Shown here in pieces: positions 3,220 to 49,912 of a stretch of 64,000 nucleotides of DNA. Position 1 is the stretch's first letter, and every line of letters begins with the position of its first letter. The position numbers were made by a program, and so were the translations under genes. Where the stretch lies: NCBI GenBank assembly GCA_002898535.1, contig BEHN01000001.1:261564-325563 (forward strand), in the 5' to 3' direction. Source of the DNA: a bacterium HR11 (GTDB lineage: Bacteria > Acidobacteriota > HRBIN11). The notes under the pieces are model-generated. The model did no database searches. It saw only the letters and a list, made by a program, of their open reading frames with translations, and was not told where the DNA came from.

Positions 3220-3596
3220 CGTCGTCAGGCATATCGATTATAAAGCCCCCCACGTCCGTACCGTCACCCCCTCGCCTCTCTCCCTGGGGGAAAACCGCCG
3301 CGGGGAGACCCATCGATAGAGGTCGGTAGACTCCGCTTTTTTCAACGACGTCGGGACCCGCCGCGTTCGCGGCCTTTTAAGTGGGACGACGAACACCTGC
3401 TCACTCCGACCTCGTCAGCCTCCGAACTCCCGTCCATAGGCCCCGCCGCGTGCCCCTCCCCACCCAGATGGATCAAACGGACCTTATGTTAAACCCCTTT
3501 ATGGAGTGTGTCAACCAAAAGTAACGAAGTGACGGGGTGACGATCCAGGGGATGGATGGTTCATAGCCGCTATGAGCCAATAAGGCTGAATCCATG

Positions 3597-3625
3597 CGGG
3601 TTTTCACGAACCGAACGGCCTTGTC
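3597..3625. repeat. Solo terminal-inverted-repeat fragment of repeat family A
   Basis: atgcgggttttcacgaaccgaacggccttgtc is the reverse complement of the family A terminus CAGAGCCGTTCGGTTnGTGAAAAyCCGCaT. Confidence 0.5.
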
Positions 3626-3626
3626 A

Positions 3627-3755
3627 TGCGGATGGGGCCGTGGGCTCATAGGTCATGACCATGAGCCATCAGCTACCAGCCATGAGCCGATATGGGTCTT
3701 GGGTTCCCTTCTCTTGCATCCTGCATCTTGCATCCTGTATCCTGCACCCTGAGGC
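3627..3755. repeat. Short tandem/palindromic repeats: family C (CATGAGCC/GGCTCATGG) followed by GCATCCT heptamer repeats
   Basis: gggctcataggtcatgaccatgagccatcagctaccagccatgagcc, then gcatcctgcatcttgcatcctgtatcctgcaccctg. A second family C block lies at about 22052-22140. Confidence 0.6.
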
Positions 3756-3781
3756 TTCACGCCGAGAGCCCCGGGGGACCC

Positions 3782-4231
3782 ATGGACCTGGACGAAGTCA
3801 TCCGCCACATCCTGCAGACTTATCGGCACATCGCCGTCGTCGGCATGTCCCGAGACCCCAGCAAAGCGGCCTATGGCGTACCGGCCTTTCTGATGCGGCA
3901 GGGCTATGTGATTTATCCCGTGAATCCCCACGCCGGCGAGATCCTGGGTCGCCGGGCCTACGCCCGCATCCTGGACATCGCCGACCCCGTCGAGGTCGTC
4001 CAGATATTTCGTCCGTCGGACCAGGTGTTACCCTTTGTCGAGGAGGCCGTCCAGCGGTCCCAGACTCGGGGAGACGTGCGGGCCGTCTGGCTTCAGGAGG
4101 GGATTCGAAATGAAGCCGCCCGGGCCCTGGCCGAGGCGGCGGGCCTCCTGTTCGTGCAGGACCGCTGTATGCTCCAGGAGTGGCTTCGGCTCAGGCCGCC
4201 TAATTCCAGCCGCTATGGAGGCGTATCATGA
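3782..4231 (+). CDS. CoA-binding domain protein (YccU-like)
   Basis: MDLDEVIRHILQTYRHIAVVGMSRDPSKAAYGVPAFLMRQGYVIYPVNPH is the CoA-binding (YccU/succinyl-CoA-ligase-like) fold signature. The upstream in-frame ORF extension is probably not translated. Confidence 0.7.
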   Translation: MDLDEVIRHILQTYRHIAVVGMSRDPSKAAYGVPAFLMRQGYVIYPVNPHAGEILGRRAYARILDIADPVEVVQIFRPSDQVLPFVEEAVQRSQTRGDVRAVWLQEGIRNEAARALAEAAGLLFVQDRCMLQEWLRLRPPNSSRYGGVS

Positions 4232-5337
4232 ACGTCTTCTCCATCATGCAAGCCGAACGCTTCGAGCAGATCGTCTTCTGCCATCATCCCGACATCGGCC
4301 TCCGGGCCATCATCGTCATCCACGACACGACCCTGGGACCGGCCCTGGGCGGGACGCGAATGTGGCCGTATGCCTCGGAGGAAGAGGCCCTGACGGATGC
4401 CCTCCGCCTGGCCCGGGGCATGACCTACAAGGCCGCCGCGGCGGGCCTCAACGCCGGGGGCGGCAAGGCCGTCATCATCGGGGACCCCAAGAAGGACAAG
4501 TCCGAGGCCCTCTTCCGGGCCTTCGGCCGCTTTGTCGAAAGCCTGAAGGGCCGGTTCATCACGGGCGAAGACGTCGGGATCGACGTCAACGACGTGGAAT
4601 ACATGGCCATGGAGACCCGTTACGTGGTCGGCCTGTCCCGGGAGCACGGCGGGGGCGGCGACCCCTCGCCCGTGACGGCCTACGGGGTCATGCAGGGCAT
4701 CCGGGCGTGTCTGCTGGAGCGCTTTGGGAGCCAGGACCTCCAGGGCCGCCGCGTCGTGATCCAGGGCCTCGGCAAGGTCGGCTTCCACCTGGCCCGGCTC
4801 CTGAGCCGGCACGGGGCGACGGTCATCGGGGCCGACATCGACCCCGACCGGGTCGCCTTCGCCCGGCGGCACGTCCCGAAGCTTCAGGTCGTCGAGCCGG
4901 AAGCCGTCTATGACGTGGAGGCCGACGTCTTTGCCCCCTGCGCCCTGGGGGGCGTCCTGAACGACGCGACGATTCCCCGCCTGCGGGCACCCATCGTGGC
5001 CGGCGCCGCCAACAATCAGTTGGCCGAGGACCGCCACGGTGAGCTCCTCCACCGGCGGGGCATCCTGTATGCTCCGGACTACGTCATCAACGCCGGCGGC
5101 CTCATCAACGTCTACGTCGAGATCGAGGGCTACGACCGGCGGCGGGCCATCACCTTAACGCGGGGGATCTTCTACAATCTGCGACGGGTCTTCGAGATCA
5201 GCCGTCGGGAGAATATCCCGACTTATATCGCCGCCGACCGGATGGCCGAGGAGCGGATCGCCGCCATCCGGCGGGTCCGGAACCTCCACGTCGAACAGCC
5301 GTACCTGGCCAGGTATCCCCGCTATGCGCGGCAATGA
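4228..5337 (+). CDS. Leucine dehydrogenase (Glu/Leu/Phe/Val dehydrogenase family)
   Basis: 369 aa with the Glu/Leu/Phe/Val dehydrogenase motif GGGKAVIIGDPKKDKSEAL, an NAD Rossmann motif GLGKVGFHLARLL, and a length typical of Leu/Val dehydrogenases. Confidence 0.85.
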   Translation: MNVFSIMQAERFEQIVFCHHPDIGLRAIIVIHDTTLGPALGGTRMWPYASEEEALTDALRLARGMTYKAAAAGLNAGGGKAVIIGDPKKDKSEALFRAFGRFVESLKGRFITGEDVGIDVNDVEYMAMETRYVVGLSREHGGGGDPSPVTAYGVMQGIRACLLERFGSQDLQGRRVVIQGLGKVGFHLARLLSRHGATVIGADIDPDRVAFARRHVPKLQVVEPEAVYDVEADVFAPCALGGVLNDATIPRLRAPIVAGAANNQLAEDRHGELLHRRGILYAPDYVINAGGLINVYVEIEGYDRRRAITLTRGIFYNLRRVFEISRRENIPTYIAADRMAEERIAAIRRVRNLHVEQPYLARYPRYARQ

Positions 5338-5367
5338 GGCCGTGAGGCGATAAGGCAGTTATTCTAA

Positions 5368-5627
5368 CAGAGCCGTTCGGTTGGTGAAAATCCGCGTGGA
5401 TTCGGCCTTTTCGACCCTTCGGGAAGGACGGTTTTCAAGCTTTGGCAGATAGGCAGTTCGGCAGGTGGGCAGATGGTCCCAAAAGCCCTGGGGCTGATCC
5501 TTGCCCACCCGGCTTCTATCTGCCTATCTGCCGACCTGCCCATCTGCCGGATGCTTGAAAAATCGTGCTTCCCGGGGGATGGGAAAGATTGTTCCGACGC
5601 CATTCTCACGAACCGAACGGCTCTGCT
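5368..5627. repeat. Repeat family A copy 1: ~260-bp MITE-like palindromic element with terminal inverted repeats
   Basis: The termini cagagccgttcggttggtgaaaat and attctcacgaaccgaacggctctg are reverse complements of each other. An internal palindrome has the arms ttggcagataggcagttcggcag and ctgccgacctgcccatctgccgg. Near-identical copies are at 15383-15627 and 57477-57744, with partial copies at 13629-13700 and 49913-50112. Confidence 0.8.
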
Positions 5628-5711
5628 AAGCTGGCTCCGATCAACCTATCGCCCGGCCTGCTAATCGCCTTACCGCCTTACTGCCTTATTGCCTTGTTCA
5701 TTTGACGGCTC

Positions 5712-7823
5712 ATGTCTTTCCAACGATTGATCGAAGACCTGGACGAGTCCCAACGGCAAGCCGTCACGACCCCGTCCCCGCAGGTCCTGGTCCTGGCCAG
5801 CGCCGGGGCCGGCAAGACCCGCGTCCTGACCCATCGGCTGGCCTGGCTCGTCGGCCATCATCCCCGGGCGGCCTTCCTGGCCGTGACCTTCACGAACAAG
5901 GCGGCCGACGAGATGCGTCAGCGGGTCGAGGCCCTCCTGGGGGACGCCCGCTCGGCGTGGAAGGCCGAGCACACCTGGATCTCGACCTTTCACCGCTTTT
6001 GCGCCCGCATCTTGCGGAAGTACGGCTATCGGATCGGCATCCCGTCCGACTTCATCATCGCCGACGAGTACCAGCAACGGCGGGTCTTCGAGGACTGCCT
6101 CCGGGCCCAGGGCCTCGACCCGAAGGCCCACGCCGGGGCCTTCCGGTCCTTCCAGCGGCTTCGGTCCGAGTTTGCCGATCCGCCGCCCCATCTGGACGAA
6201 CCGTGGCCGACCCTGTGGAAAGACTACCTTCGGCGCCTCCGGAGCCTGCGGGCCCTGGACTTCGACGACCTCCAGTACGAGACGATCCGTCTCCTGGAAA
6301 CGGATGCGGCCCTTCGGACTTATCTGGCCGAGTACTTTCACACGGTCCTGATCGACGAGTTCCAGGACACGAACCCGCCCCAGTACCGGCTCCTGCGGCT
6401 CCTGCGGGAGGCCGACGCCCCGTTCTTCGTCGTCGGCGACCAGGACCAGTCGATTTACGGCTTTCGGGGGGCCCGACCGGACCACTTTCACGACCTCCTT
6501 CGGGACTATCCGAGGACGGAGGTCATCCCCTTGCGGTACAACTACCGGTCCCGGGCCGTCATCGTCCGGGCCGCCATGGAGGTGATCGCCCGAGACGAGC
6601 GGCGTCTGCCTCACGAGGTCCAGGCCCTCCAGCAGGGCGGTCGTGTCCTGATTTATGGAGCCGTGGACGACCGAGACGAAGCCCGGTGGGTCCGCCAGCA
6701 GGTCGAGCGCATCCGGGACGCCTCGCCGGACGCCCAGGTCGCCGTCCTCGTCCGGGCCCGAAGCCAACTGCCGGCCCTCGAGCAGGCCTTCCAGGGCGCC
6801 CGCTTCCCCTACGTCGTCATCGGCCTCCGGAGCTGGTGGGACAGTCCGCCGATCCGGGCCGTCCTCGACTATGCGGCCTTCTGTGCCCATCCCGAAGTCG
6901 ACTTCTACCTGGAGGCCGTCTGCAACGTGCCGTCCCGGGGGATCGGCCCCCGGGCCCTTCAGAAGCTCCGGGAGCGGGCCGGGGACCGGCCGCTGTGGAC
7001 GTACCTGACGGAAGCCGTTCAGGCCGGGGAGGACACGCTTCCGACGGTATGGCAACGGTTTTATCGGGAGATGTCCGAGTGGATCGCCCTCCGGCCGGAG
7101 GTCCCGCCCGTCGAGTGGGTCCGCCGCCTGACGGAGTTCCTGCAAGAGCGGGGCTTTGGCGATGCCCGCCAGCGAGCGTCTTACGCCGATCGATGGAAGG
7201 AGCTCCTCCAGCTCCTCCGGGACGTGAAGACGTGGCCCGAGTTCATCGAACAGTTGAGCCTCCGGGCGCCAGACGACCGGCGCCTCGACGCCTCCGAACA
7301 GCGCGCCGTCCTCATCATGACGGTCCACGCCGCCAAGGGCCTCGAGTTCGACTACGTGTTCATCCCGGGCGTCGAGGACGGCCTGTTCCCTCACTTCCTG
7401 GCCGAGACGCCGGAAGAGGCCCGGGAGGAGCGGCGAATATTTTTCGTGGCCGTCACGCGCGCCCGTCAGGAGGTCTTCATCTCGTGGTCGGCCGAGCGGT
7501 ACAACCACCGACGGTCGCCGTCGCCGTTCCTCGGGGACATGCCTCTGGCGGAGCTTCGGGTCGAGGGTCTCCCGCTCCGGCGGTGGTTCCCGGAGGCTTG
7601 GCGGGCGGCCGTCGCCGCCAGCGCTCCTGCGGCGGCCGGCCCCGAAGAGCCGCTCCAGCCCGGCGACCTCGTCGAGCATGCCGCCTACGGTCGGGGGATC
7701 GTCCGGTCCGTTCACGGGGAAGGCGACCGCATGAAGGTCCGCATCTGGTTCTTCACAGGCGAGACCCGAGAGTTCCTCTTACGGCAGGCACCGATCCGTG
7801 CCCTCCGGGGCCGGCATAAATGA
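5712..7823 (+). CDS. UvrD/PcrA/Rep-family ATP-dependent DNA helicase
   Basis: 703 aa with Walker A (ASAGAGKTRVL), helicase motifs (FTNKAADEM, VLIDEFQDTN, VGDQDQSIYGFRGA) and a C-terminal UvrD_C region (MTVHAAKGLEFDYVFIPG). Confidence 0.85.
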   Translation: MSFQRLIEDLDESQRQAVTTPSPQVLVLASAGAGKTRVLTHRLAWLVGHHPRAAFLAVTFTNKAADEMRQRVEALLGDARSAWKAEHTWISTFHRFCARILRKYGYRIGIPSDFIIADEYQQRRVFEDCLRAQGLDPKAHAGAFRSFQRLRSEFADPPPHLDEPWPTLWKDYLRRLRSLRALDFDDLQYETIRLLETDAALRTYLAEYFHTVLIDEFQDTNPPQYRLLRLLREADAPFFVVGDQDQSIYGFRGARPDHFHDLLRDYPRTEVIPLRYNYRSRAVIVRAAMEVIARDERRLPHEVQALQQGGRVLIYGAVDDRDEARWVRQQVERIRDASPDAQVAVLVRARSQLPALEQAFQGARFPYVVIGLRSWWDSPPIRAVLDYAAFCAHPEVDFYLEAVCNVPSRGIGPRALQKLRERAGDRPLWTYLTEAVQAGEDTLPTVWQRFYREMSEWIALRPEVPPVEWVRRLTEFLQERGFGDARQRASYADRWKELLQLLRDVKTWPEFIEQLSLRAPDDRRLDASEQRAVLIMTVHAAKGLEFDYVFIPGVEDGLFPHFLAETPEEAREERRIFFVAVTRARQEVFISWSAERYNHRRSPSPFLGDMPLAELRVEGLPLRRWFPEAWRAAVAASAPAAAGPEEPLQPGDLVEHAAYGRGIVRSVHGEGDRMKVRIWFFTGETREFLLRQAPIRALRGRHK

Positions 7824-7831
7824 CCACGAAC

Positions 7832-7930
7832 TATAGACCATGGACCACAGACCTAAGGGTGGTCTGGTTTCTTCGTGCCAGGACGGGGAACGGAGTGAAT
7901 GGGGTCTGAGGTCTGTAGTCTATGGTCCCT
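7832..7930. repeat. Repeat family B copy (ATAGACCAyrGACC tandem units forming a palindrome)
   Basis: ctatagaccatggaccacagacc ... ggtctgaggtctgtagtctatggtcc. Other copies are at 15188-15327, 18603-18727, 32064-32206, 41459-41574, 55598-55862, 56428-56520 and 63900-63940. Confidence 0.7.
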
Positions 7931-7945
7931 TTTAGCCTGGGACCT

Positions 7946-10288
7946 TCACTGGGTCACGACTTCAAAGGGGACCTGCCGCCGGGCCACGCAAGGCGGGTCG
8001 GTCGTCCGGACCTCGACCTCCAGACGGTAGCCGCCCGCCGGGAGACCCCGGTAGGGAAGCAGGAAGAAGTTCGTGACGACCTCCGGGGCCGAGCCCTGGA
8101 ACTTCAAGGTCGTCGGGGGCGTCTCGTTGACCGGTTGGCCGTCGGCCCGATACAGACGGAAGAGGACCTGCATGGCCTCGGCCTTCAAAAGTGAGGCCGG
8201 GAGCAGGACCTGATAGAGGCCCCCGAGTTGGCCCTGGGGCGGGAAGTTCTGATACGGCGTCAGCCGGATCAGGTAGTTCTTGTACTGGGCATGGCCTCCG
8301 GACGTCCACTGAAGCTGGGGCACGCTCGTGTCGGCCTGCCGGATTTCGCTACTCAGGATGAAGGTCCCGACCTCGGGGCAACTCGTGGGCCGGACGTCGG
8401 GCCACTGCCACCGGGTCGCCATCGTCTTCCAGCCGCCGGCCTCGAGGACGCCCCACACGACGGTCACGCCGGGCTGTTTGATGGACAGGACCTTCGAGTA
8501 ATGGACGGCCGCCTGGGCCTTCTCCAGCTCCGGCAGGTCTTTCAAGGGAATCTGAATCGGCAGACGCTCGTAGCCCTTATCGACGACCTTGAAGTCGGCG
8601 TCCCGGACGACCCAGGCGACGTGGATCTCGTCGTACAGGACGTCCGGCGTCGTCGTCAGGGGCGTCAGGTGCCGAATCGGGACGGCCAGACTCATGTGGA
8701 GGTCGAGCGTCTGGGGCGTCCGCCAGAGATGCCGCAGAGACATCGGGACGTCCGGCCAGGGGAAGAGGTCCGCAAAGTCGAGGGCCGCCGCCAGCTGGCG
8801 GCTCACCCGGAGAGACCAGGGGATTTCGGCATAGGCCCTCCGGGTCCGGACCCTCAGGCCGGGCCGTCGGACCTTCAACTGAATCGAATGGTGCTTGATG
8901 CTGTCGGGAAGCGACCCGAGGTCAAAGCTGATGAGGTAGTAATGCCGAAAGTCGCTCCCGATTTGCTGAAAGAACTTGTCGAGACCCGTCGGCGACGTCC
9001 AGGCCACGCCGCCCGTCTGCTCGGCGATGCCCGCCATCTGGTACTGAATGTTCACGACGTTGAACTCGGCTGTGATCGTGGGCCGGATGTTCGTCTCGGC
9101 GCCCCACTCGGGATTCGGCTGGGTCGGATTGACCCAGTAAATGGTCAGACCCGCTGTGTTGGCCGAGCGGACGATTTCCTCATAGGTGCGAACCTCAGCC
9201 GAGTAGGTACTCAATTCTCGCTGGAACTCCTGCGCGATCGAAACCTCTACCGTGGGGGGAATGTCATGCCGCTGGACGTTCCATCGGAAGGCTTGGAGTG
9301 CATACGACAGGTAGTAATTCCCCGTCGGGTCGAAGCCCTCGGAGACGAATAAGACGCTCTTCCGACCCGGCACGTGGGCCAGAAAGTCAAAGACCGTCCG
9401 GAGGGATGCCTCCAGGTTCTGGGCGACCCGCCGGTCCTCGAGGCCCATGTTGCGGGCCGTATGGAAGGCATCTCGGGCGATCTGCTCGTAGCACATCTGC
9501 CGCCGGTCGAGGTCCTCATAGATGGAGCAACCCTCGAGCCGCTCCAAGATGCCGTCGAGGGTCGAAAGCCGACTGACCGTCCACGCGGCCCCCCGCACGC
9601 CAGCCCCGACCCGCTCCAGGGTCTTCAACACCAGGTCTACGTCTTGGGTCAATCCGTGCTCGACCCGAAAGCCCCCGCTGGCGTCCAGACTCACGAACAT
9701 GAAGTAAGCCCCCATCCGGTGGAGTTCCTCCAAGAACCGGCGCAGGGATTCCTTCAGCGTGGCCAGGGTCAGGCCGCCCGTGTGGGCCTTGTCATACAGG
9801 ATGATGAACGTATTGAAGGGCGTCCTCGGCGGCACGGCGCCCGCCTGCTGATAGGGTCGGACGACCTCGCCGGTGACCTGGACCGGCGGCGGTGCCTCCG
9901 GGGTGGCCGGGGGCTTTTCGACGGCGACGAGGTCCACGTAACGGACGGGATAGGCCTTCCCGTCGACGGTCAGCTCGAAATCTTCGGGCTTGAGGCCGTA
10001 TACGAATTGGCCCTTATCGTCGTAAACGAAGACCTCGACCTGCCCCAGACGGACCTCAACCCGAGCCTGGGCACCCGGGAAGGTGTAGACCTGCTCTTGC
10101 GGGGACGGCGGCTTCGGCGTCTCCTGGGCCGGGACCGGCAGGACGCTCCACAGCCAAAGGGACAGGAGGATGAGGCAGATAGGCAAGTGGGCAGGTGGGC
10201 AGGTGGGACGGTAAGGAGCGCCGGCCTCCGGCCCGTGAGAAGATGACGAGCCGGAAACGGCGCGACGATGGGATGGTATAGGCCTCAT
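7946..10288 (-). CDS. VWFA-domain protein of the Acidobacterial TIGR03436 type, secreted/membrane-anchored
   Basis: About 780 aa. The N-terminal signal/TM segment is LPICLILLSLWLWSVLPVPAQE, and the VWA-like core carries FVSLDASGG and LFVSEGFD motifs. The listed ORF extends to 10426, but the ATG at 10288 (MRPIPS) is the more plausible start. Confidence 0.65.
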   Translation of the reverse strand: MRPIPSHRRAVSGSSSSHGPEAGAPYRPTCPPAHLPICLILLSLWLWSVLPVPAQETPKPPSPQEQVYTFPGAQARVEVRLGQVEVFVYDDKGQFVYGLKPEDFELTVDGKAYPVRYVDLVAVEKPPATPEAPPPVQVTGEVVRPYQQAGAVPPRTPFNTFIILYDKAHTGGLTLATLKESLRRFLEELHRMGAYFMFVSLDASGGFRVEHGLTQDVDLVLKTLERVGAGVRGAAWTVSRLSTLDGILERLEGCSIYEDLDRRQMCYEQIARDAFHTARNMGLEDRRVAQNLEASLRTVFDFLAHVPGRKSVLFVSEGFDPTGNYYLSYALQAFRWNVQRHDIPPTVEVSIAQEFQRELSTYSAEVRTYEEIVRSANTAGLTIYWVNPTQPNPEWGAETNIRPTITAEFNVVNIQYQMAGIAEQTGGVAWTSPTGLDKFFQQIGSDFRHYYLISFDLGSLPDSIKHHSIQLKVRRPGLRVRTRRAYAEIPWSLRVSRQLAAALDFADLFPWPDVPMSLRHLWRTPQTLDLHMSLAVPIRHLTPLTTTPDVLYDEIHVAWVVRDADFKVVDKGYERLPIQIPLKDLPELEKAQAAVHYSKVLSIKQPGVTVVWGVLEAGGWKTMATRWQWPDVRPTSCPEVGTFILSSEIRQADTSVPQLQWTSGGHAQYKNYLIRLTPYQNFPPQGQLGGLYQVLLPASLLKAEAMQVLFRLYRADGQPVNETPPTTLKFQGSAPEVVTNFFLLPYRGLPAGGYRLEVEVRTTDPPCVARRQVPFEVVTQ

Positions 10289-13628: not shown

Positions 13629-13700
13629 CAGAGCCGCTCGGTTCGTGAGAATGACATCAGAACCACCTTTCCCATCCCCCGGGAAGCACGATTTTTCAAA
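13629..13700. repeat. Repeat family A, truncated half-copy
   Basis: cagagccgctcggttcgtgagaatgacatcagaaccacctttcccatcccccgggaagcacgatttttcaaag matches the right arm of family A in reverse orientation. Confidence 0.65.
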
Positions 13701-14480: not shown

Positions 14481-14984
14481 ATGGCCAGCAAACTCATGGT
14501 CGGCGAGGCTCTGGTCGGCGACGGCAACGAGGTCGCCCACATCGACCTGATCATCGGTCCGAAGGACGGGCCGGTCGGACAGGCTTTTGCGAATGCCTTT
14601 GTGAGCCAGCGGGCGGGCCACACGGCCCTCCTGGCGGTCGTCGCCCCGAACCTGCCTGCGAAACCTGACGTCGTGATCGTCAACAAGGTCACGATCAAGG
14701 GGGAAAAGCAGGCGGTCCAGATGTTCGGTCCGGCGCAGGAGGCCGTGGCCCGGGCGGTCGTCGATTCGGTCAAGGAAGGGGTCATCCCCAAAGATCAAGT
14801 CGACGACCTGTGTCTGGTCGTCGGGGTGTTCATCCACTGGGAAGCCCAGGACAACAAGAAGATTTATGACTTCAACTACCAGGCCACGAAGCTGGCCATC
14901 GCTCGGGCCCTCAAGGGCGAGCCGAAGGCTGACTATGTGATCCAGCAGGCGGCCACGACGACGCATCCCTTCCGGGGATTCTAA
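14481..14984 (+). CDS. fae: Formaldehyde-activating enzyme (5,6,7,8-tetrahydromethanopterin hydro-lyase)
   Basis: 167 aa with near-colinear similarity to methylotroph Fae ([20 protein letters not shown] ... [10 protein letters not shown] ... [18 protein letters not shown] ... VGVFIHWEA ... ATHPF). A strong RBS gaggagg lies upstream. Confidence 0.9.
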
Positions 14985-14995
14985 TCATTCATTTA

Positions 14996-15052
14996 TGTGT
15001 CGGGTGCTGGGTGTTCGGTCGGGTGCCCTGACCCGACACCCAGCACCGTCTC
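14996..15052 (+). terminator. Long near-perfect hairpin immediately downstream of fae (putative intrinsic terminator)
   Basis: gtgtcgggtgctgggtgttcggtcgggtgccctgacccgacacccagcaccg forms a ~20-bp stem starting 11 nt after the fae stop codon. Confidence 0.45.
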
Positions 15053-15187
15053 GTATCCCGCATCCCGTATCCCGCATTTCGTATCCGGGTGTCTCGGTCG
15101 GAGACTTTCTCTCATAGGGCCTTACCTGGGAGCATGGGCCTTTTCAAGCGTGGTGACGAAGTCCAGGGACGCATAACGAGAGCCAGT

Positions 15188-15327
15188 CTCATCAATCCGA
15201 CGGGACGGGGATCGGACCCTCGATATCCGACCCCAGACCGTAGACCACAGACCATAGACCATGGACCTTAGACCCCGTGGGTCTAAGCCGGTCTGTGGTC
15301 TGGGGTCGATGGTCGGATTTATGAGAT
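15188..15327. repeat. Repeat family B copy with terminal inverted repeats (tctcatcaatccgac / gtcggatttatgaga)
   Basis: Central ccccagaccgtagaccacagaccatagaccatggacc is mirrored by ggtctgtggtctggggtcgatggtc. Confidence 0.7.
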
Positions 15328-15382
15328 CGCTTGGAGGGACGGGATTCAGGTCATGCATGCGTCCTCGGCCTGGGGAACCTAA

Positions 15383-15627
15383 CAGAACCGTTCGGTTCAT
15401 GAGAATGGCGTCAGAACAATCTTTCCCATCCCCCGGAAAGCACGATGTTTCAAGCATTTGGCAGATGGGCCGTCGGCAGATAGGCAAGTCGGCCGATGGG
15501 CCGGTCGGGCGACTGCCCATCTGCCGACCTGCCGATTGGCCCATCTGCCGAGTGCTTGAAAAATCGTGCTTTCGTGGAGGTGCCCTTTCCGCTTCCCATC
15601 GCACTTCTCACCTCCCGAACGGCTCTG
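15383..15627. repeat. Repeat family A, full copy in inverted orientation
   Basis: Starts cagaaccgttcggttcatgagaatggcg and ends cacctcccgaacggctctg. The internal ggcagat(a/g)ggc... palindrome is conserved. Confidence 0.8.
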
Positions 15628-15666
15628 CTAAGTTGAACGCCCAACACCCGGCACCTGACACCTACG

Positions 15667-16422
15667 ATGGGTCGTCTGGCGGGATTGAAAGCCGTCGTCA
15701 CGGGGGGCAGTAGCGGCATCGGTCGGGCCATCGCGGAGGCCTTCGCCCAAGAGGGCGCCACAGTCTTGCTGACTTATCGGGTCTCGGCCGAGGCGGCGCA
15801 GGAAGTCGTCCAGGCGATTCAGGCCCGGGGCGGCCAGGCCGAGGCTTTCCAGGTCGACCTGAGCACGCGGGCGGCCTGCGAGGCCCTCGTCCGAGAGGCC
15901 CATGCCCGGCTCGGCCGTCTGGACGTCTGGGTCAACAACGCCGGGGCCGACATCCTGACGACGGAGGCGGCTGGGTGGGACTGGGAGCGGAAGCTGGACC
16001 TGCTCTTGGCCGTCGACCTGAAGGGGACGATCGCCTGCTGTTATGCCGTGGCGCCCCTCATGCAGGCCCAGGCCGAGGGCGGTTGCATCCTGAATATGAG
16101 TTGGGACCATGTCCTGTTCGGCATGGCCGGCGAGAACCCCCAGCTCTTTGCGGCCGTCAAGGGGGCCATCTTTTCTTTCAGCAAGAGCCTGGCCCGGGCG
16201 TTGGCCCCGAAGGTCCGGGTCAACGTCCTGGCCCCGGGCTGGATCGAGACCCGCTTTGGAGCGACCGTCGACCCGAAGTTTCACCGCGCTGTCGCCGACA
16301 GCATTCCCCTCCGCCGGTGGGGGCGGCCGGAGGACGTCGCCGCCGTCGCCGTCTTTCTGGCTTCCCCGGAGGCGACCTATCTGACGGGGCAGGCGATCTT
16401 GATCAACGGGGGCGTGATATAA
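15667..16422 (+). CDS. Short-chain dehydrogenase/reductase (SDR) family protein, atypical active site
   Basis: 251 aa with TGGSSGIGRAIA (NAD(P)-binding) and NNAG motifs. The canonical YxxxK appears as FAAVK, a Tyr-to-Phe change based on my hand alignment to classical SDRs. Confidence 0.85.
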   Translation: MGRLAGLKAVVTGGSSGIGRAIAEAFAQEGATVLLTYRVSAEAAQEVVQAIQARGGQAEAFQVDLSTRAACEALVREAHARLGRLDVWVNNAGADILTTEAAGWDWERKLDLLLAVDLKGTIACCYAVAPLMQAQAEGGCILNMSWDHVLFGMAGENPQLFAAVKGAIFSFSKSLARALAPKVRVNVLAPGWIETRFGATVDPKFHRAVADSIPLRRWGRPEDVAAVAVFLASPEATYLTGQAILINGGVI

Positions 16423-16423
16423 T

Positions 16424-16528
16424 ATTCGGGAATTCGGGAGTTCGGGCATTCGGCCGTCGGGCCGTCGGGCCGTTCGGGCGCCGCCCGACTTCCCACGGCC
16501 GGACTGCTGAATTCCCGGTATCCTTCCG
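16424..16528. repeat. Repeat family D: tandem GAATTCCCG / TTCGGGC-type short repeats
   Basis: attcgggaattcgggagttcgggcattcggccgtcgggccgtcgggccgttcgggc ... gaattcccgg. Related blocks are at 22830-22875, 47168-47325 and 57796-57885. Confidence 0.6.
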
Positions 16529-16569
16529 CCGACCGCCCCTCATGACCCGAAATTCTCAGGAGGGCGGTC

Positions 16570-16935
16570 ATGGCACGACCCCAATTGAAGGTTTACTCGG
16601 AAGAGGAGATCCAGGTCAAGCTCAAGGAGATGGGCCTCGACGAGTGGTACTACGAGGACGGCTGGCTCCGGCGCAAATACAATACCGACGGCTGGCCGAC
16701 GACCCTGATGCTCGTCAACGCCATCGGGTACCTCGCCGAGGCGGCCTGGCATCACCCGGACCTGTCCGTCACGTGGGGCAAGCTTTGGGTCAAGCTCCGC
16801 ACGCATCACGCCAACGGCATCACCGACAAGGACTTCGAGCTGGCCCGGAAGATCGAAGACGTCGTCCTCTGGCGGCCGGGCCCCGAGAGTGCCCTCGAAG
16901 GCACGCCCAACAAGTTCGTCTTCAGTAAGAAGTAG
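16570..16935 (+). CDS. Pterin-4a-carbinolamine dehydratase (PCD/DCoH family)
   Basis: 121 aa with the PCD signature EAAWHHPDLSVTWGKLWVKLRTHHANGITDKD. Confidence 0.85.
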   Translation: MARPQLKVYSEEEIQVKLKEMGLDEWYYEDGWLRRKYNTDGWPTTLMLVNAIGYLAEAAWHHPDLSVTWGKLWVKLRTHHANGITDKDFELARKIEDVVLWRPGPESALEGTPNKFVFSKK

Positions 16936-17212
16936 GTGTCGGGTTGGACAGGGGGGCGTCCGTCCCAACGTTCAGGCCACGTACCCGGGTCCTGGGGACC
17001 GGCGAGGACGGTTTGAAGTCCGCCCTGACTCACGCTACGTCGGTGGGTGGGCAGGACCGCTTGTGGGACAGGACATGTCCGATGTGCGTGTTTGAATGGA
17101 AGACGCTTGCAGGACGGCGAGGACCCGGTGTTTTTCGACGCTGTTATGGGAGTTCACGGGAGGGACGCCGGGCCCGGGACCCGGGACCTGACACTCGGGA
17201 CCTTTTCGTGGG

Positions 17213-18610
17213 GTGGCGACGTCCGTGGGGGAAAAGTATCTGTTCGTGACGGGAAAGCTGGCGGCCCCGGCGCTACGGGCGACCCTGGCGCAGGCCCATC
17301 TGCCCTTCGACTACGAGGTCGCCGTCATGAACATCAGCGTCGCCGCCCTGATGACACCGGAGTGGATCGCCCGCTTCTTGGAAGTCCCGCCGGGCGTCAC
17401 CCGCATCATGATCCCCGGCCTCTGCAAGGGCGACCCGCAAGTCCTGACGCAGAAGTTCGGGATTCCGGCCGAGAAGGGGCCGCCGGACCTGAAGCAGATC
17501 CCGAGCTACTTCGGTCGGGCCGGCGTGCGAGAGGACTACGGAGCGTATAACATCCGTATCTTCGCCGAGATCAACGACGTCCAGCGCCTGACTCTCGACC
17601 AGATCGTGACGATGGCCGAGTACTATCGGGCCAGCGGGGCCGACGTCATCGACCTGGGCCTGGCTTTAGACCGGCCGTGGGATGAAGGCCCGGCCGTCAT
17701 CGCCGAGCTGAAGGCTCGGGGCTTGACCCTCAGCATCGACACGATGAATCCCGACGAGATCCTCCGGGCCGACGCCGCCGGCGTCGACTATGTCCTCAGC
17801 CTAAACGGGTCGAACCTTTACCTGGCCGAGCGCATCCGGGCGACGCCCGTCCTGATCCCGGACAGCCCGGGCGACTTGGCGAGCCTGGAGCGGTCGATGG
17901 CCGTCCTGGAGCGTCTCGGCAAGCCCTACCTGGTGGACCCCATCCTGGAGCCGATCAACTTCGGATTTGCCGAGAGCCTGGCCCGCTACGTCGAGGTCCG
18001 CCGTCGGCATCCCGACGTCGAGATCCTGATGGGCATCGGCAACGTCACCGAGCTGACGGAGGCCGACACGACGGGGATGACGGCCTTGCTCATCGGCTTC
18101 TGCCAGGAACTGGAAATTCATCACGTCCTGACGACGGAGGTCATCCCCTGGGCCCGGGGCGTCGTCCGGGAGACGGCCATCGCCCGTCAGTTGATGTACT
18201 ATGCCAAACGGCACGGCGTCCTGCCCAAGCATATCGACAGCCGCCTCCTGACGGTCAAGGACGCCGAGTTCATGCCCTACACGGAGGCCGAGCTCCGTCA
18301 GCTCCAGGCTCAGGTCACGGACCCCAACTACCGTATCTTCGCCGACGCCGATTGGATTTACGTGTTCAACGCCGACCGCTTCGTCAAGGGCGTGGACATC
18401 AATGAAATCTTCGACCAGCTGGAGGTCGACGAGGCGACCCACGCCTTCTACCTGGGCAAGGAACTGATGAAGGCTTACATCGCCCGGTGCCTGCGCAAGA
18501 ACTACCGGCAGGAGAACCCCCTCGACTGGGGATACCTGACGTTTGACGAACCCCGGCGGGAACATGTCAAACTGACCCAGCGGGGCAAGGCGAAGCGGGG
18601 CGTGATATAG
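17213..18610 (+). CDS. Dihydropteroate-synthase-like (pterin-binding) protein with C-terminal DUF4346-like domain, H4MPT biosynthesis type
   Basis: 465 aa starting at a GTG. Pterin-binding DHPS-like core (GADVIDLGLA ... LSIDTMNPDEI ... GVDYVLSLNG) in the fae/mtd cluster. The same architecture occurs in archaeal and bacterial methanopterin biosynthesis loci. Confidence 0.7.
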   Translation: MATSVGEKYLFVTGKLAAPALRATLAQAHLPFDYEVAVMNISVAALMTPEWIARFLEVPPGVTRIMIPGLCKGDPQVLTQKFGIPAEKGPPDLKQIPSYFGRAGVREDYGAYNIRIFAEINDVQRLTLDQIVTMAEYYRASGADVIDLGLALDRPWDEGPAVIAELKARGLTLSIDTMNPDEILRADAAGVDYVLSLNGSNLYLAERIRATPVLIPDSPGDLASLERSMAVLERLGKPYLVDPILEPINFGFAESLARYVEVRRRHPDVEILMGIGNVTELTEADTTGMTALLIGFCQELEIHHVLTTEVIPWARGVVRETAIARQLMYYAKRHGVLPKHIDSRLLTVKDAEFMPYTEAELRQLQAQVTDPNYRIFADADWIYVFNADRFVKGVDINEIFDQLEVDEATHAFYLGKELMKAYIARCLRKNYRQENPLDWGYLTFDEPRREHVKLTQRGKAKRGVI

Positions 18611-18727
18611 ACCACGGACCTCAGACCACGGAGTCGGGACCCTTGACCTGGGTCGGCCGGAGGGCCCCGTCTTGGAATGTAGCGGCCCGAGCTCCCCAGG
18701 TCAGTCTGTAGTCTGTGGGCCACAGTC
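18603..18727. repeat. Repeat family B, degenerate copy
   Basis: atagaccacggacctcagaccacggagtcggg ... cagtctgtagtctgtgggccacagtc. Confidence 0.5.
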
Positions 18728-18750
18728 TTTTTCACACCGCGAGGTGGGCC

Positions 18751-19626
18751 ATGAAGAAAATCCTCATCCAACTCGACACGGACAAGCATCCGAGCACCTT
18801 CGACCGCATCGTCGCTTATGACGCCGGGGCCGACGAGGTCCTCAGTTACGGCGGCGTCACGCCGGGCGACGTGCGGGGCCTCGTCCTGAGCGCCGTCTTC
18901 ACGCGGGGCGTGCCGGACCTGAAGACCATCGCCGTCTGGATCGGGGGCTTTAACGTCGCCCTGGGCGAGCAAATCCTGGCCGAGGTCCAGCGGTCCTTCT
19001 TCGGACCCTTCCGGGTGTCCGTCATGCTGGACTCGAACGGATGCAATACGACGGCGGCGACGGCCATCGCCAAGCTCGTCAAGGCCCACGACCTCAAGGG
19101 CAAGAAGGCCGTCGTGATCGGCCTGGGGCCGGTCGGCCTCCGGTCGGCCCTGCTCCTCCAGCAGGAGGGCTGTTCGGTCACGGTCACGTCCATCCCGCCG
19201 GACCTCCTGGGCGCTCGGTACAACCCGGAAATCGCCCGCCAGAGCTTGGAGATGGCTCGGCAGGTCCCGAACCTTACCGTCGAGGACGTTCCCGACCGGA
19301 CGGCCCTCGAGCGCTGTCTGGAGGGGGCCGAAATCGCCATCACCGCCGGTCCGGCCGGTGTCCAGCTCCTGCGTTATGACTTCTGGTCGAAGCATCCGAC
19401 GCTCCGGTGGCTGGTCGATTTCAACCTGACCGAACCCTTAGGGATCGAGGGTATTAAGCCGTCGGACGACCTGACCGAACGGGACGGCAAGCTCGTCCTG
19501 GGTCCGCTGGCCATCGGGAATCCCAAGATGAAGGTCCACAAGGCGTGCGTCGCCAAGCTCTTCGAGCGCAACGACCTCGTCTTGAACATCGAAGGGGTCT
19601 ACGCCGTCGCCCGAGAAACGGTGTAA
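18751..19626 (+). CDS. mtdB: NAD(P)-dependent methylene-tetrahydromethanopterin dehydrogenase (MtdA/MtdB family)
   Basis: Colinear with methylotroph MtdA/MtdB (ILIQLDTDKHPSTFD ... FFGPFRVSVMLDSNGCNTTAA ... KGKKAVVIGLGPVG ... KVHKACVAKLFE). The start is set at the ATG at 18751, preceded by ggtggg. Confidence 0.85.
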   Translation: MKKILIQLDTDKHPSTFDRIVAYDAGADEVLSYGGVTPGDVRGLVLSAVFTRGVPDLKTIAVWIGGFNVALGEQILAEVQRSFFGPFRVSVMLDSNGCNTTAATAIAKLVKAHDLKGKKAVVIGLGPVGLRSALLLQQEGCSVTVTSIPPDLLGARYNPEIARQSLEMARQVPNLTVEDVPDRTALERCLEGAEIAITAGPAGVQLLRYDFWSKHPTLRWLVDFNLTEPLGIEGIKPSDDLTERDGKLVLGPLAIGNPKMKVHKACVAKLFERNDLVLNIEGVYAVARETV

Positions 19627-19663
19627 GGAATCGGTGAAGTCCGACACCCAGCCCTGAGGGCTC

Positions 19664-20758
19664 ATGCGTGTCCTCGGCATCGACCCGGGTACGGTCTCCT
19701 TTGACGTATGCGGTCTGGAGGACGGCCGGGTCTTCTTGGACTTACAGGTCGCCTCGCCGGACCTGGCGGAGGACCCGTCCCCTCTGGTGGAAACTCTGCG
19801 GGCCTGCGGTCCGGTCGACCTGGTCGTGGGTCCGTCCGGTTACGGCCTGCCCCTTGTGCGCGGCGACCAGGTCGGGGAGCGGGAACTGGCCCTGATGGTC
19901 CTCGTTCGAGCCGACGACCCGACGGCGGGACAGGGCGGGATCCAGGGATTTCGCCGCATTGTGCAGGCCCTGATCGCTACCGGCCTGCCCGTTGTATTCG
20001 TCCCGGGGGTCATCCACCTCCCGACGGTCCCGGCTTATCGGAAGGCCAATCGCATCGACATGGGGACGGCCGATAAGGTTTGTAGCGCCGCCCTGGGGAT
20101 TTATGACCAGGCTCGACGCTACGAGATCCCGTACGCAGAGACGTCCTTCATCTTGCTGGAGCTGGGCGGCGCCTTCACGGCGGCCCTGGCCGTCGAGAGA
20201 GGCCGGATCGTGGACGGTCTCGGCGGCGCCTCAGGCCCCATCGGCCTGCGGAGCGGCGGGGCGATGGACGGTGAAGTCGCCTACCTCATCGGTGGGGCCC
20301 TTTCCAAAGGAACGGTCTTCAGCGGCGGGGCGGCGGACATCGCCGGAGCCGATCCGGCCACGGATATCGAGACATGGCCGGACGATCCCCGCTACCGACC
20401 GGCCTGGCGGGCGTGGGTCGAGGGCGCCGTCAAGGCCGTCCGGGCCCTGACGGCCGTCCTGCCGCGGCCTCGGGAGATCTTGCTATCGGGCCGGATGAGT
20501 GCCTTGGGACGGGTCATCGCCGAGATGACTGACCGTCTTTCCGATATCGCCCCCGTCCGGCGGATGGGCGGCTTGGCCTGGCCTGACGGGACGCCGGTCC
20601 GGGCGAAGGAGGCGGCCCAGGGGGCGGCGCTCCTGGCCGACGGCCTCGCCGGAGGTCCCTTCGAACCTCTCGTCGAGGCCCTGGAACTCCGCCGGGCTTC
20701 GGGGACCGTCCTCGATTACCTATATCTTCGGGGCGCCGAGACGATTCGCCTCCGATAG
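19664..20758 (+). CDS. DUF1464-family protein (ASKHA/actin-like ATPase fold) associated with H4MPT-linked C1 clusters
   Basis: 364 aa with an N-terminal MRVLGIDPGTVSFD phosphate-1 motif typical of the ASKHA fold. DUF1464 genes are conserved in methanopterin pathway loci. Confidence 0.65.
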   Translation: MRVLGIDPGTVSFDVCGLEDGRVFLDLQVASPDLAEDPSPLVETLRACGPVDLVVGPSGYGLPLVRGDQVGERELALMVLVRADDPTAGQGGIQGFRRIVQALIATGLPVVFVPGVIHLPTVPAYRKANRIDMGTADKVCSAALGIYDQARRYEIPYAETSFILLELGGAFTAALAVERGRIVDGLGGASGPIGLRSGGAMDGEVAYLIGGALSKGTVFSGGAADIAGADPATDIETWPDDPRYRPAWRAWVEGAVKAVRALTAVLPRPREILLSGRMSALGRVIAEMTDRLSDIAPVRRMGGLAWPDGTPVRAKEAAQGAALLADGLAGGPFEPLVEALELRRASGTVLDYLYLRGAETIRLR

Positions 20759-20804
20759 GCAGGGCCGTAAGGCGATATCGCCTCACTGCCTGACTGTCCT
20801 TCCC

Positions 20805-21974
20805 ATGGCGATTCTCCTCGTCGGTTACAGCGTCCGCATGCTTGCTGAGCTGGCCGTCCGGGCCGGCTACGACGTATTCGCCCTGGACTACTTCGGCGAC
20901 GCCGACCTGCGGGCCTTGTGTCCGGGCCTGTCGCTCCGGCACGACTTCAATGGCCAGTCTTACGACCCGAGGACGCTCGTTCGTATCGCCGCCACGCTGA
21001 GTCACCCGGCCGTCGTGTACGGGGCCAGCTTTGAAAACCATCCTGCGTTGGTCGTCCGTCTGGCCCGGGGACGGCGGCTCCTGGGCAACTCGCCGGCGAC
21101 CCTTCGGGGCGTCCGAAACCCCTTCCGTCTCGGCGACGTCTTACGGTCGGCCGGCCGGGCCTTTCCCGAGACGCTTCCGGCGGACCCAGTGAAGCGGCCG
21201 GACCCGAAGCGCCGATGGCTCCTGAAGCCCCTGCGGAGCGGCGGCGGGCACGCCGTCCGGGTCTGGTCCGGGGGTGCCGTCCCATCGGATGCCGTCTTGC
21301 AGGAATACCGTCCCGGCATGGTCGGCTCGGCCGTCTTCGTGGCCGACGGTCGGCGGGCCGTCCTGCTCGGCGTGACCGAACAACTCGTCGGCCGCCGAGC
21401 CTTCGGCGCTCGGGACTTCCGGTACTGCGGGAACCTCGTCCCGCCCCGCTTGGCATCCGACGAGCTGCGGGCCCTCATCGATGAGGCTCGGGCCGTCGCC
21501 GCCGTCCTGACCGAGGCCTTTGGGCTTCGGGGCTTGAACGGCATCGACTTTGTCTGGTCGGGGGGGCGCCTCTGGACGATCGAGGTCAATCCCCGGCCGC
21601 CGGCTTCCTTAGAGCCCCTGGAGATGGTCTACGGGTATCGGACTTTCGAGCTCCACGTGCGGGCCTTCGACGGGGACCTACCGGAATTCGACCTCGGGCA
21701 GGCCGAACGGCGGGTTTCGGCGGCGGGCAAGGCGGTCCTCTACGCGACCGAGGACGTGACAGTCGGTGATACGGGGGACTGGCCCGGGCGAGGCATTCGG
21801 GACGTGCCCCATCCGGACGAGTTCATCCCGCGAGACCGGCCGATTTGTACCCTGCGGGCGGTGGGCCCGACGCCGGCGGCGTGCTTGAACCGACTCCGGC
21901 GGCGGGCCCGCTGGATTTACTCCCGACTGGGGTGCTCCTCATTCGTAGGGCGATGGAAAAGGCCCAGGGCATAG
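20805..21974 (+). CDS. ATP-grasp domain protein (methanopterin/cofactor glutamate-ligase-like, orfY-type)
   Basis: 389 aa with ATP-grasp features (LLKPLRSGGGHAVRV ... NGIDFVW ... IEVNPRP). It sits at the 3-prime end of the fae-mtd cluster. Confidence 0.65.
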   Translation: MAILLVGYSVRMLAELAVRAGYDVFALDYFGDADLRALCPGLSLRHDFNGQSYDPRTLVRIAATLSHPAVVYGASFENHPALVVRLARGRRLLGNSPATLRGVRNPFRLGDVLRSAGRAFPETLPADPVKRPDPKRRWLLKPLRSGGGHAVRVWSGGAVPSDAVLQEYRPGMVGSAVFVADGRRAVLLGVTEQLVGRRAFGARDFRYCGNLVPPRLASDELRALIDEARAVAAVLTEAFGLRGLNGIDFVWSGGRLWTIEVNPRPPASLEPLEMVYGYRTFELHVRAFDGDLPEFDLGQAERRVSAAGKAVLYATEDVTVGDTGDWPGRGIRDVPHPDEFIPRDRPICTLRAVGPTPAACLNRLRRRARWIYSRLGCSSFVGRWKRPRA

Positions 21975-22051: not shown

Positions 22052-22140
22052 GCGATGGCTCATGGCTCGTATTAGCTCATGGGTCATAGCTCATGGCTCA
22101 TGGTCCCATGAGCTATCAGCCATGAGCTATGAGCCAACCG
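22052..22140. repeat. Repeat family C (GCTCATGG / CATGAGCT tandem-palindromic repeats)
   Basis: ggctcatggctcgtattagctcatgggtcatagctcatggctcatggtcccatgagctatcagccatgagctatgagcc. Confidence 0.6.
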
Positions 22141-22252
22141 GAAGTGGCGTCGCAAAAGGTGATATGATGGGTCGACCGGCGGACTTGACTTGGAGGGGAC
22201 TTGGAGTATAATTGGAGGTCGATTGGCCCTCTAAGACGAGGAGGATGGGTCG

Positions 22253-22390
22253 ATGACAGGCCATCTGTGGACGACGGGGTCGGTCGTTCGGCCGTCAGGG
22301 GTTGACCCCGTGAACCGGATGGGCGTCGTGTCGCAACTCGTCCTCTCCCTGCTGTGCCTGTCTCTGCTGCTGATCTCCCCCTGGGGGTAG
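22253..22390 (+). promoter_or_regulatory. Candidate Leu/Val-rich leader peptide ORF (possible attenuator) upstream of ilvD
   Basis: A 45-codon ORF (ATG at 22253) lies 8 nt downstream of a gaggagg SD: MTGHLWTTGSVVRPSGVDPVNRMGVVSQLVLSLLCLSLLLISPWG. Its last 18 codons include 8 Leu (ctc/ctg), 3 Val and 1 Ile, and the stop codon sits inside the palindrome ctccccctgggggtagggggag. Confidence 0.3.
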
Positions 22391-22903
22391 GGGGAGAGCC
22401 GCACTCAATCATCACCACACCACATTTCGTCAGGGTCTCTCGCTTTCCATCCTCAGCGGTCGGGTCCCGCGCGGACCGTCGATGGAGCGGGTGTAGGACT
22501 TTCGGCAAAACGCCAAGGGCGGAGAGTCCGATACCCCGCTCGCCCCATCCTATCCAAGCCCCGCTCGCCTGAAAGTGGGGTCATGAGATAGACCCCGGAC
22601 CACCGACCGTTGGCCATTCGCTGAGGGGGTGGTCGCCCCGGGACGGATGCCCGCATGACGGCGGGCTCTGAATCGGATGACGCCGGCGCGACTGAGGACA
22701 CCGGACACTCCCCAAGAGGTCTCCTTCATTTCGGCCTATCGGCCCATCGGCCGACCGGCCCGACGGCCGGGCGGCCGGATGGCCGTGACCCCGCTCGGGC
22801 GAGCGGGGCTTGGATAAAAAAACTGCCCATCGGCCGACTGCCGGACTCCCGAATTCCCGGACGGCCGATCCTGAGACCCGGGACCTGATATCGGAGGCAT
22901 TGG

Positions 22904-32025: not shown

Positions 32026-32063
32026 TAAGCCATCTCATATAAAGGTGCCTGGAAGCGCTCGCA

Positions 32064-41398: not shown

Positions 41399-41458
41399 AA
41401 CTCCCGAGCGATGTCGGCCCCCGGGTCGTCCCCCTATCCCGGGGGCCCCTTTATTAAA

Positions 41459-49907: not shown

Positions 49908-49912
49908 GTTAG

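Follow-up and report, generated by a model that had tools for sequence, protein, structure and literature searches.

The stretch of DNA analysed here (the window) comprises 64,000 nucleotides (nt) of contig BEHN01000001.1, positions 261,564 to 325,563, from bacterium HR11, a member of the Acidobacteriota. Between its genes lies a dispersed palindromic repeat, family A, which an initial annotation had read either as a transposable element of the miniature inverted-repeat type (MITE) or as a structural element resembling repetitive extragenic palindromes (REPs) and bacterial interspersed mosaic elements (BIMEs). Repeat finding and self-BLAST recovered three full copies, three truncated copies and one weak remnant, i.e., six or seven family A sites per 64 kb, spread among unrelated housekeeping genes. 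Full copies 1, 2 and 3 occupy the spacers LeuDH/UvrD (LeuDH, leucine dehydrogenase), Fae/SDR and DUF2400/histidine kinase, and the truncated copies are located between the TerC and PriA genes, upstream of a gene for a TonB-dependent receptor, and between a TPR gene and a CoA-binding gene. According to codon-usage gene calling and Pfam every copy is intergenic, as had been claimed from the start. The open reading frames (ORFs) inside the copies, for example 5364-5609 on the minus strand, have no Pfam support and were outcompeted by real genes in the codon-usage gene calling; they are artefacts of the palindrome, in agreement with their description as phantom genes. The 23-nt terminus CAGAGCCGTTCGGTTSGTGARAA occurs nine times in the window at three or fewer mismatches, with zero occurrences expected and none in 100 shuffled sequences.

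Copy 1 (5367-5629) and copy 3 (57476-57738) share 95% identity across 263 nt (BLAST E = 1e-117), and this likeness breaks off at the termini, save for the right-hand CTAA flank. Copy 2 aligns with copy 1 only in inverted orientation, with about 78% identity across 198 nt, and contains different arm types. The near-identity that had been assigned to all three full copies thus holds for copies 1 and 3 but not for copy 2. Copy 1 lies on the plus strand at 5368-5625 in the order L arm, core, R arm. Its left terminal repeat (5368-5391) opens an L arm that extends to about 5440 and terminates in TTTTCAAGC, followed by a GGCAGNTN array (5444-5474), a loop (about 5475-5515), an inverted array (5516-5548) and the R arm (5553-5625), which includes the right terminal repeat (5602-5625). 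The terminal repeats, described earlier as perfect, match at 22 of 24 positions. The element is bounded by a 4-bp direct repeat, CTAA at 5364-5367 and again at 5626-5629. Copy 3 (57477-57734, plus strand) has the same order L-core-R and is flanked by TTGA (57473-57476) and CTAA (57735-57738). Copy 2 (15383-15627) has an R-type arm at its left and a third arm type, R', at its right, a GGCAG/GGCCG octamer core, and CTAA on both sides (15379-15382 and 15628-15631); the R' arm is also present in two of the related loci compared here (L043 and L005). Compared with the initial annotation, the starts at 5368 and 57477 and the whole interval 15383-15627 were confirmed, whereas the true ends of copies 1 and 3 are 5625 and 57734 and not 5627 and 57744.

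The truncated copies were likewise recovered with some changes to their borders. On the minus strand, 49913-50090 comprises a terminus, an R arm, a GGCAGNTN array expanded to about 10 units, and the beginning of the loop, GTCCCAAAAAGCCCTG, but lacks the L half. It has a TTAG flank at 49909-49912 and is located in the spacer from the TerC stop to the PriA start; its start had been placed correctly, its end not at 50090 but at 50112. Upstream of PriA, the 12-nt flank CCGATCAAGTTA adjoins a family A terminus in the window (49897-49912) as well as in related locus L083 (about 757-772), with the element on opposite sides of this flank and in opposite orientation. One possibility is that two neighbouring insertions once existed here and that each lineage has lost one of them. 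At 13629-13700, an interval that needed no correction, a solo R arm with its terminus lies on the minus strand, 44-53 nt upstream of the start codon of the TonB-dependent receptor gene, and is followed by a different short repeat, GGGACGGA GTGACGAT. The solo L-type terminus in the divergent region between the TPR and CoA-binding genes, given before as 3597-3625, does exist but spans 3582-3626 (minus strand, terminal base 3623). To the copies already listed a weak remnant at 41583-41632 can be added, which shows 84% identity over 51 nt to the CGTCACG array and inner R arm of an element in JAUQPV01, a related metagenome-assembled genome (MAG). The larger inverted repeat that had been noticed around copy 1 is also real: its left arm, GGCGATAAGGCAG, lies at 5348-5360, and its right arm comprises a GCCTTACT array (5667-5695) with CTGCCTTATTGCC at about 5682-5694. 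Copy 1 is inserted into the loop of this older hairpin of short tandem repeats.

The anatomy of the family was derived from an alignment of 85 termini and 23 full elements from the window and related loci. Elements are 69-391 bp long, with a mode of 245-260 bp, and carry at both ends a 24-bp terminal inverted repeat starting with 5'-CAGAGCCGTTCGG. The L arm (about 73 nt) reads ...GTGAAAACCCGCATGGATTCGGC...GGACGGTTTTCAAGC, and the R arm (also about 73 nt), inward from its terminus, ...GTGAGAATGGCGTCGG...GAAGCACGATTTTTCAAGC. The two arms are inverted homologues, about 70% alike, and differ from each other in a constant way: any L arm is closer to other L arms than to any R arm, and 16 of the 23 full elements have L...R polarity. 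This polarity, together with the consistent difference between the arms, indicates that the element is copied as a whole unit. Between the arms lies a variable core of 7-8-nt tandem repeats, mostly arranged as an inverted pair, by which the element becomes one long hairpin. Folding of copy 1, a check proposed in the initial annotation, indeed gave a single hairpin of about 130 bp (RNA -169 kcal/mol, z = -16.5; DNA z = -10.7).

The core repeat type defines subfamilies, and at least six repeat types were found between homologous L and R arms. Type GGCAGNTN occurs in all copies of the window and in some JAUQPV copies; further types are CGTGACGN, GGTGYTG, GGGATRC, GCGAAYA and AAGGGCAG-like repeats. 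The arm passes into the core after TTTCAAGC; in two subfamilies it does so about 20 nt sooner, following CCCTTCG. The length of the arrays varies among copies, as in the roughly 10 units of the copy at 49913. There are also coreless short forms (L025, 110 bp; L032, 69 bp), chimeras with two non-complementary arrays (L010 1675, L043 748) and a fused double element (L013, 391 bp). This replaceable tandem-repeat core is the sole unusual feature of family A.

Scanned against 185,579 species genomes, the terminus pattern matched about 30 contigs of MAG JAUQPV01 ('Acidobacteriota bacterium JZ-1.bins.94') and, in an uncultured Blastocatellia MAG, a single contig, and full arms and cores were found by BLAST only in these two genomes, with more than 40 further copies in the former and three in the latter. 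The family is thus not confined to local copies, the case that the initial annotation had named as refuting it: termini are conserved in dozens of copies outside the window. JAUQPV contigs are syntenic with the window at about 86-96% nucleotide identity by block, mostly 90-93%; for example, L041 matches window 18.7-26.5 kb at about 90% and L080 window 50.2-63.6 kb at mostly 92-93% identity. Given this synteny, the organism of the window is a congener of JAUQPV01. The leucine dehydrogenase of the window has its nearest named relatives, with about 71-72% identity, in Blastocatellia and 'bacterium HR08'. Window 3713-5394 is matched at 100% identity by a Logan contig from run DRR101363 that breaks inside copy 1, the expected behaviour for a dispersed repeat; many JAUQPV contigs also terminate in family A copies. 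The other genome matches to the terminus pattern, outside the Acidobacteriota (about a dozen loci in Syntrophomonadaceae and others, representing roughly six distinct sequences) were rejected, as their number is at chance level and they show no arm similarity. The 22 metagenome contigs that matched the pattern have nothing in common beyond the 20-mer and were likewise attributed to chance. Pattern scans and plasmid BLAST yielded no family A members in the metagenome, plasmid or phage/viral collections, and among all collections searched family A was found only in this clade. A full-text search of the literature found no description of family A or of repeats in this lineage.

The sequences flanking the 85 termini contain Y at position -4, T at -3 (59 of 85), A at -2 (56 of 85) and R at -1. 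Among the flanking tetramers TTAG was found 15 times, CTAA 11 times, TTAA three times and CTAG not at all, in a genome of 65% G+C. TTAA is about as common in this genome as CTAA/TTAG, yet at the flanks it is outnumbered by 26 to 3. As CTAA and TTAG are reverse complements, a duplicated non-palindromic 4-mer gives one of each per element, as at copies 1 and 2. Perfect 4-bp direct repeats enclose five of the 23 full elements (permutation p = 0.0066), among them copies 1 and 2 with CTAA. The two flanks of an element also agree at the outer 4-mer positions (-4 and -1) with a frequency above that in permutations (p = 0.006); TA is present on both sides of nine of the 23 elements. Both the excess of outer-position matches and the perfect repeats favour a 4-bp duplication over a duplication of TA alone. 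In addition, two pairs of abutting elements (L010 3947/3952 and L043 743/748) are split by exactly one CTAA or TTAG. A 3-bp duplication (TWA, PIF/Harbinger-like) was discarded, as it would demand asymmetric element ends. Non-coding DNA contains 1.1-1.7 YTAR sites per kb but coding DNA only 0.4-0.5 per kb, and this roughly threefold higher density partly accounts for the intergenic location of the copies. Although 48 of 78 CTAA/TTAG sites are coding, all six copies lie in non-coding DNA, for which the chance is about 0.003, i.e., (30/78)^6; this suggests selection against insertions within genes.

At orthologous sites in relatives the three full copies of the window are absent. The LeuDH-UvrD spacer has a length of only 30 nt in L067, a relative of about 90% identity, compared with 374 nt in the window, where it holds copy 1. 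The Fae-SDR spacer carries copy 2 and a second repeat, family B, in the window but neither of them in L074, L075 and L076-79, and the DUF2400-kinase spacer with copy 3 contains no element in L080 (JAUQPV) or L084. The reverse case was also found: a JAUQPV copy lies upstream of ilvD (L041 4083-4319) and has no counterpart in the window. This reciprocity and the number of sites favour insertion after the lineages had split. It can be stated with fair confidence that family A spread recently within this uncultured hot-spring Acidobacteriota lineage, in a relative sense only; the 'recently active' of the initial annotation stands insofar as the insertions are younger than the split from a relative of about 90-93% identity.

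Family A, the anatomy, copy number, target signature, direct repeats and insertion polymorphism of which were observed directly, is probably a non-autonomous DNA transposon of the MITE type with a foldback architecture that is moved in trans by an IS5-like DDE transposase. The type of this transposase and its cut-or-copy step we infer. A transposase encoded elsewhere would bind the 24-bp terminal repeats, excise or copy the element and insert it at 5'-YTAR-3', mostly CTAA/TTAG, with duplication of 4 bp. Copies would persist only between genes, intragenic insertions presumably being removed by selection, and would afterwards decay as point mutations arise, as truncation leaves solo arms, and as the repeat arrays expand or contract. 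Conserved termini elsewhere, YTAR flanks, 4-bp direct repeats and reciprocal presence and absence all speak for the MITE alternative of the initial annotation. The features by which MITEs are recognised, i.e., a non-coding element of less than 1 kb, conserved terminal repeats, target duplication, dispersed copies with unrelated flanks and filled versus empty sites, were all found here, save one, a known partner element. Family A is thus a genuine lineage-restricted MITE family and not a new kind of system.

The target behaviour weakly suggests, by analogy, that the partner transposase belongs to an IS5-like family. The 5'-YTAR-3' target is common to family A and the IS5 family (IS5 group; IS427 group, including IS711) (PMC5009759, PMC2266754). 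Within that family IS5 duplicates its 4-bp YTAR sites (PMC5009759), and IS711 targets YTAR, duplicates TA and prefers palindromic repeats (PMC2266754), a preference that can be compared with the position of copy 1 in the loop of the older hairpin. Family A differs from these elements by having no transposase gene and a terminal repeat starting with CA.

Several observations weigh against an IS5-mobilised MITE. The terminal repeats of the IS5 group usually start with GG or GA, whereas those of family A start with CA. Perfect target duplications are missing from 18 of the 23 full elements, including copy 3 with its TTGA and CTAA; most older copies have degraded target duplications. None of the four orthologous sites offers a base-exact empty site, as the alignments break within a few bases of the insertion points; such sites are not recoverable because intergenic DNA turns over fast in this clade. 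At any single site, a deletion in the relatives could in principle have produced the same picture. Finally, neither the window nor about 0.35 Mb of related loci yielded a transposase gene bounded by family A terminal repeats. This search included the ORFs beside solo termini, an all-against-all BLASTP of 234 called proteins for genes in multiple copies and a Pfam analysis of most window genes. Pfam found no transposase domain in the window ORFs scanned (all but 1-210, 33771-38264, 55943-56434, 59324-60697, 60723-62789 and 62799-63872), in line with the earlier statement that the window encodes no transposase; the gene calls skipped by Pfam, except 1-210 and 33771-38264, are covered by the annotation of their L080 orthologs. 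Many accepted bacterial MITEs, Correia elements among them, are also without a known partner, so a missing partner is no bar to membership in this class.

A different partner, of the IS630/Tc1-mariner type, would duplicate only TA; the true ends would then lie one base further out (R-CAGAGCC) and YTAR would be a mere target preference. TA is indeed the most constant part of the flanks, being present on both sides of nine elements, IS630 duplicates TA inside NTAN sites, and Tc1-like ends commonly start with CAG. A precedent for duplication of TA within YTAR sites exists in IS711 (PMC2266754). Against this model stand the agreement of the outer positions -4 and -1, the five perfect 4-bp repeats and the 26 CTAA/TTAG compared with three TTAA, a tetramer of similar frequency in the genome, all of which fit a duplicated 4-mer; the model appears unlikely. 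Spread as REP/BIME-type extragenic palindromes by a REP-associated tyrosine transposase (RAYT, Y1 HUH type) is far less probable still. The intergenic location, the palindromic structure, the high copy number and the G+C-rich genome are shared with such repeats, but at 245-260 bp family A is about ten times longer than the 20-40 bp given for the REPs in PMC3733652, it has true terminal inverted repeats (24 bp) and is flanked by direct repeats of 4 bp, its ends read CAGAGCC without a GTAG or CGTC tag, and no RAYT-like gene was present among the window ORFs scanned by Pfam. The REP/BIME-like alternative of the initial annotation is therefore not supported. That the copies merely reflect a segmental duplication or an assembly artefact, for which only their local clustering speaks, is hardly credible, as they are flanked by unrelated housekeeping genes, their likeness ends at the terminal repeats, and the family occurs in independent assemblies (NCBI MAGs and the Logan contig that breaks inside copy 1). 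The copies are dispersed insertions, as the initial annotation had preferred.

Another explanation accepts former mobility but holds that the copies are now structural or regulatory hairpins selected by the host, for example as stabilisers of transcript ends, RNase III sites or terminator-like barriers, and that this function accounts for their retention. The extreme stability of the hairpin would fit this idea. The L-to-R strand folds about 20 kcal/mol better than its complement in the best-preserved copies, with a hint of G-U asymmetry, but this is a weak hint of function at most. The three informative copies of the window that lie between same-strand genes, namely copies 1 and 3 and the one at 49913, are co-oriented with these genes; over all informative elements, however, no orientation bias was found (10 co-directional versus 6 opposed, p = 0.45), and 12 copies lie between divergent genes compared with three between convergent genes. 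Hairpins of short tandem repeats follow many genes in this lineage, and the one behind the Fae gene keeps its position in relatives, yet the relatives manage without family A at the orthologous sites. Covariation is negligible (RNAalifold term of -0.76 kcal/mol for eight L...R elements, with compensations in single sequences only), and no Rfam family matched at gathering score, with only chance matches to miRNA hairpins below it. A terminator role was rejected, as no T-run follows the hairpin on either strand, and so was a promoter role, as the sole promoter-like match relies on flank sequence specific to copy 1. A host function as the reason for retention is thus improbable, and nothing demands a function beyond that of a selfish element. 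Effects of the 130-bp hairpin on neighbouring genes are nevertheless plausible.

Family A resembles the MITEs Nezha (Anabaena/Nostoc), Chunjie (Geobacter) and Correia (Neisseria) in being small (about 70-390 bp), non-coding and intergenic, and it shares with bacterial MITEs terminal inverted repeats of about 24 bp, short direct repeats and a very stable predicted hairpin. For Nezha, the criteria were terminal and direct repeats, stable folding and the comparison of filled with empty sites, and the argument from orthologous sites in close relatives is the same as the one used here (PMC3184786). Family A has no sequence similarity to any of the three, its interior consists of 7-8-nt tandem repeats that vary by subfamily, and it resides in an Acidobacteriota lineage of thermophilic appearance. 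The terminal repeats of Nezha are also those of ISNpu3, whereas no partner was found for family A. A precedent for a tandem repeat within a bacterial MITE is BrickBuilt of Porphyromonas gingivalis, the body of which is a tandem array enclosed by conserved 'leader' and 'tail' units, with small inverted repeats at its ends; it is always intergenic (PMC4596501). BrickBuilt contains one direct array of 23-nt units, family A two inverted arrays of 7-8-nt units that fold back; moreover, the long arms of family A are mutually inverted and its repeat type changes between subfamilies. REPs and BIMEs are likewise intergenic, palindromic and abundant, but differ in size, terminal repeats, direct repeats and end tags. 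Long inverted arms of short tandem repeats, a hairpin and variable array lengths are also features of the eukaryotic Foldback (FB) transposons. As FB elements are kilobases long, eukaryotic and in some cases carry coding regions, this resemblance is architectural only and no homology is implied.

A second foldback repeat, family B, is unrelated to family A and was found at 15183-15340, 32045-32209, 41456-41570 and 55600-55860, with smaller arrays at 7822-7935, 18610-18720 and 63900-64000. Its terminal inverted repeats read about CTCATMAATCCGAC, its arm GGGACGGGGATCGGACCCTCGATATCCGACC, and its core consists of GACCAYR heptamers in inverted arrays. Family B is missing at the orthologous sites of L080 and L083 (55.6 kb site) and of L074-L079 (15.2 kb site). 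As its flanks are not YTAR, a different partner is probable. Almost all intergenic regions of more than about 100 nt contain tandem arrays of 7- or 8-nt units with five constant and two to three variable bases, for example at 3654-3751, 10174-10207, 16424-16479, 22055-22136, 22731-22785, 32266-32301, 43671-43700, 47174-47320, 50124-50157, 56469-56517, 57806-57868 and 63873-63931. Many of these arrays are inverted pairs that fold as hairpins, and the array after the Fae gene is conserved in position among relatives with a different number of units. The arrays are a genome-wide trait of the lineage, for which no published description was found. The interchangeable core style of family A is common to family B and to these hairpins. 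Somewhat speculatively, families A and B may form a lineage-specific class of 'foldback MITEs' with a swappable 7-8-nt tandem-repeat cassette joined to the arms at one of two fixed points, reflecting a process that builds, exchanges or captures short-repeat hairpins beyond the ordinary drift of MITE interiors; the chance of this is considered low.

Upstream of the ilvD-ilvBN-ilvC-leuA-leuCD cluster lies a conserved non-coding block (window 22137-22462, L041 3563-3887, L074 10365-10715) in which a promoter-like site (TTGACT...TATAAT), a ribosome-binding site and a short ORF with many Leu, Val and Ile codons (MTGH...VVLQPVLSLLCLSLPLISPWG) were recognised. The block resembles an attenuator or leader peptide. 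A family A element is located between this block and ilvD in JAUQPV; where JAUQPV carries it, the window contains a long palindromic element at 22480-22830 (CCTATCCAAGCCCCGCTCGCC ... GGCGAGCGGGGCTTGGATA, with CGGCCGAC-type arrays). The spacer upstream of ilvD appears to be an insertion hot spot.

The gene for transfer-messenger RNA (tmRNA; 53326-54014) is interrupted by an insertion at 53657-53999. Within the T-loop, at ...GGGTTCGATTC (53656), the Rfam alignment breaks off; the 3' end that it lacks, CCCGCCGCCTCCACCA, is found 343 nt further on. Three relatives (L080/JAUQPV, L083 and L084) have an uninterrupted gene. The insert is single-copy and strongly structured (-183 kcal/mol), is not G-ended as a group I intron would be, and matched no Rfam family at E <= 1, group I introns included. 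It could be an unusual intron, an intervening sequence or a disrupting insertion. A further feature of the window is a cluster for tetrahydromethanopterin (H4MPT)-linked formaldehyde oxidation (14481-21974), which is conserved in all relatives compared and encodes Fae, a pterin-4a-carbinolamine dehydratase, a DUF6513 pterin-binding protein, an Mpt_N protein (methylene-H4MPT dehydrogenase-like), a DUF1464 protein and an ATP-grasp protein. This cluster provides metabolic context for the uncultured lineage.

For annotation and assembly, family A merits masking, as it produces phantom ORFs on both strands and breaks short-read assemblies. Its copies are insertion polymorphisms that separate closely related populations of hot-spring Acidobacteriota. 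The tandem-repeat cores tie the family to the 7-8-nt repeat hairpins of most intergenic regions, a trait that may merit a study of its own. Located beside promoters and within operon-like gene pairs (LeuDH-UvrD, Fae-SDR and DUF2400-histidine kinase), the 130-bp hairpins could affect transcription or mRNA processing. The YTAR target and the duplication of 4 bp suggest that an IS5-like transposase is, or recently was, active in this lineage without cultured members.

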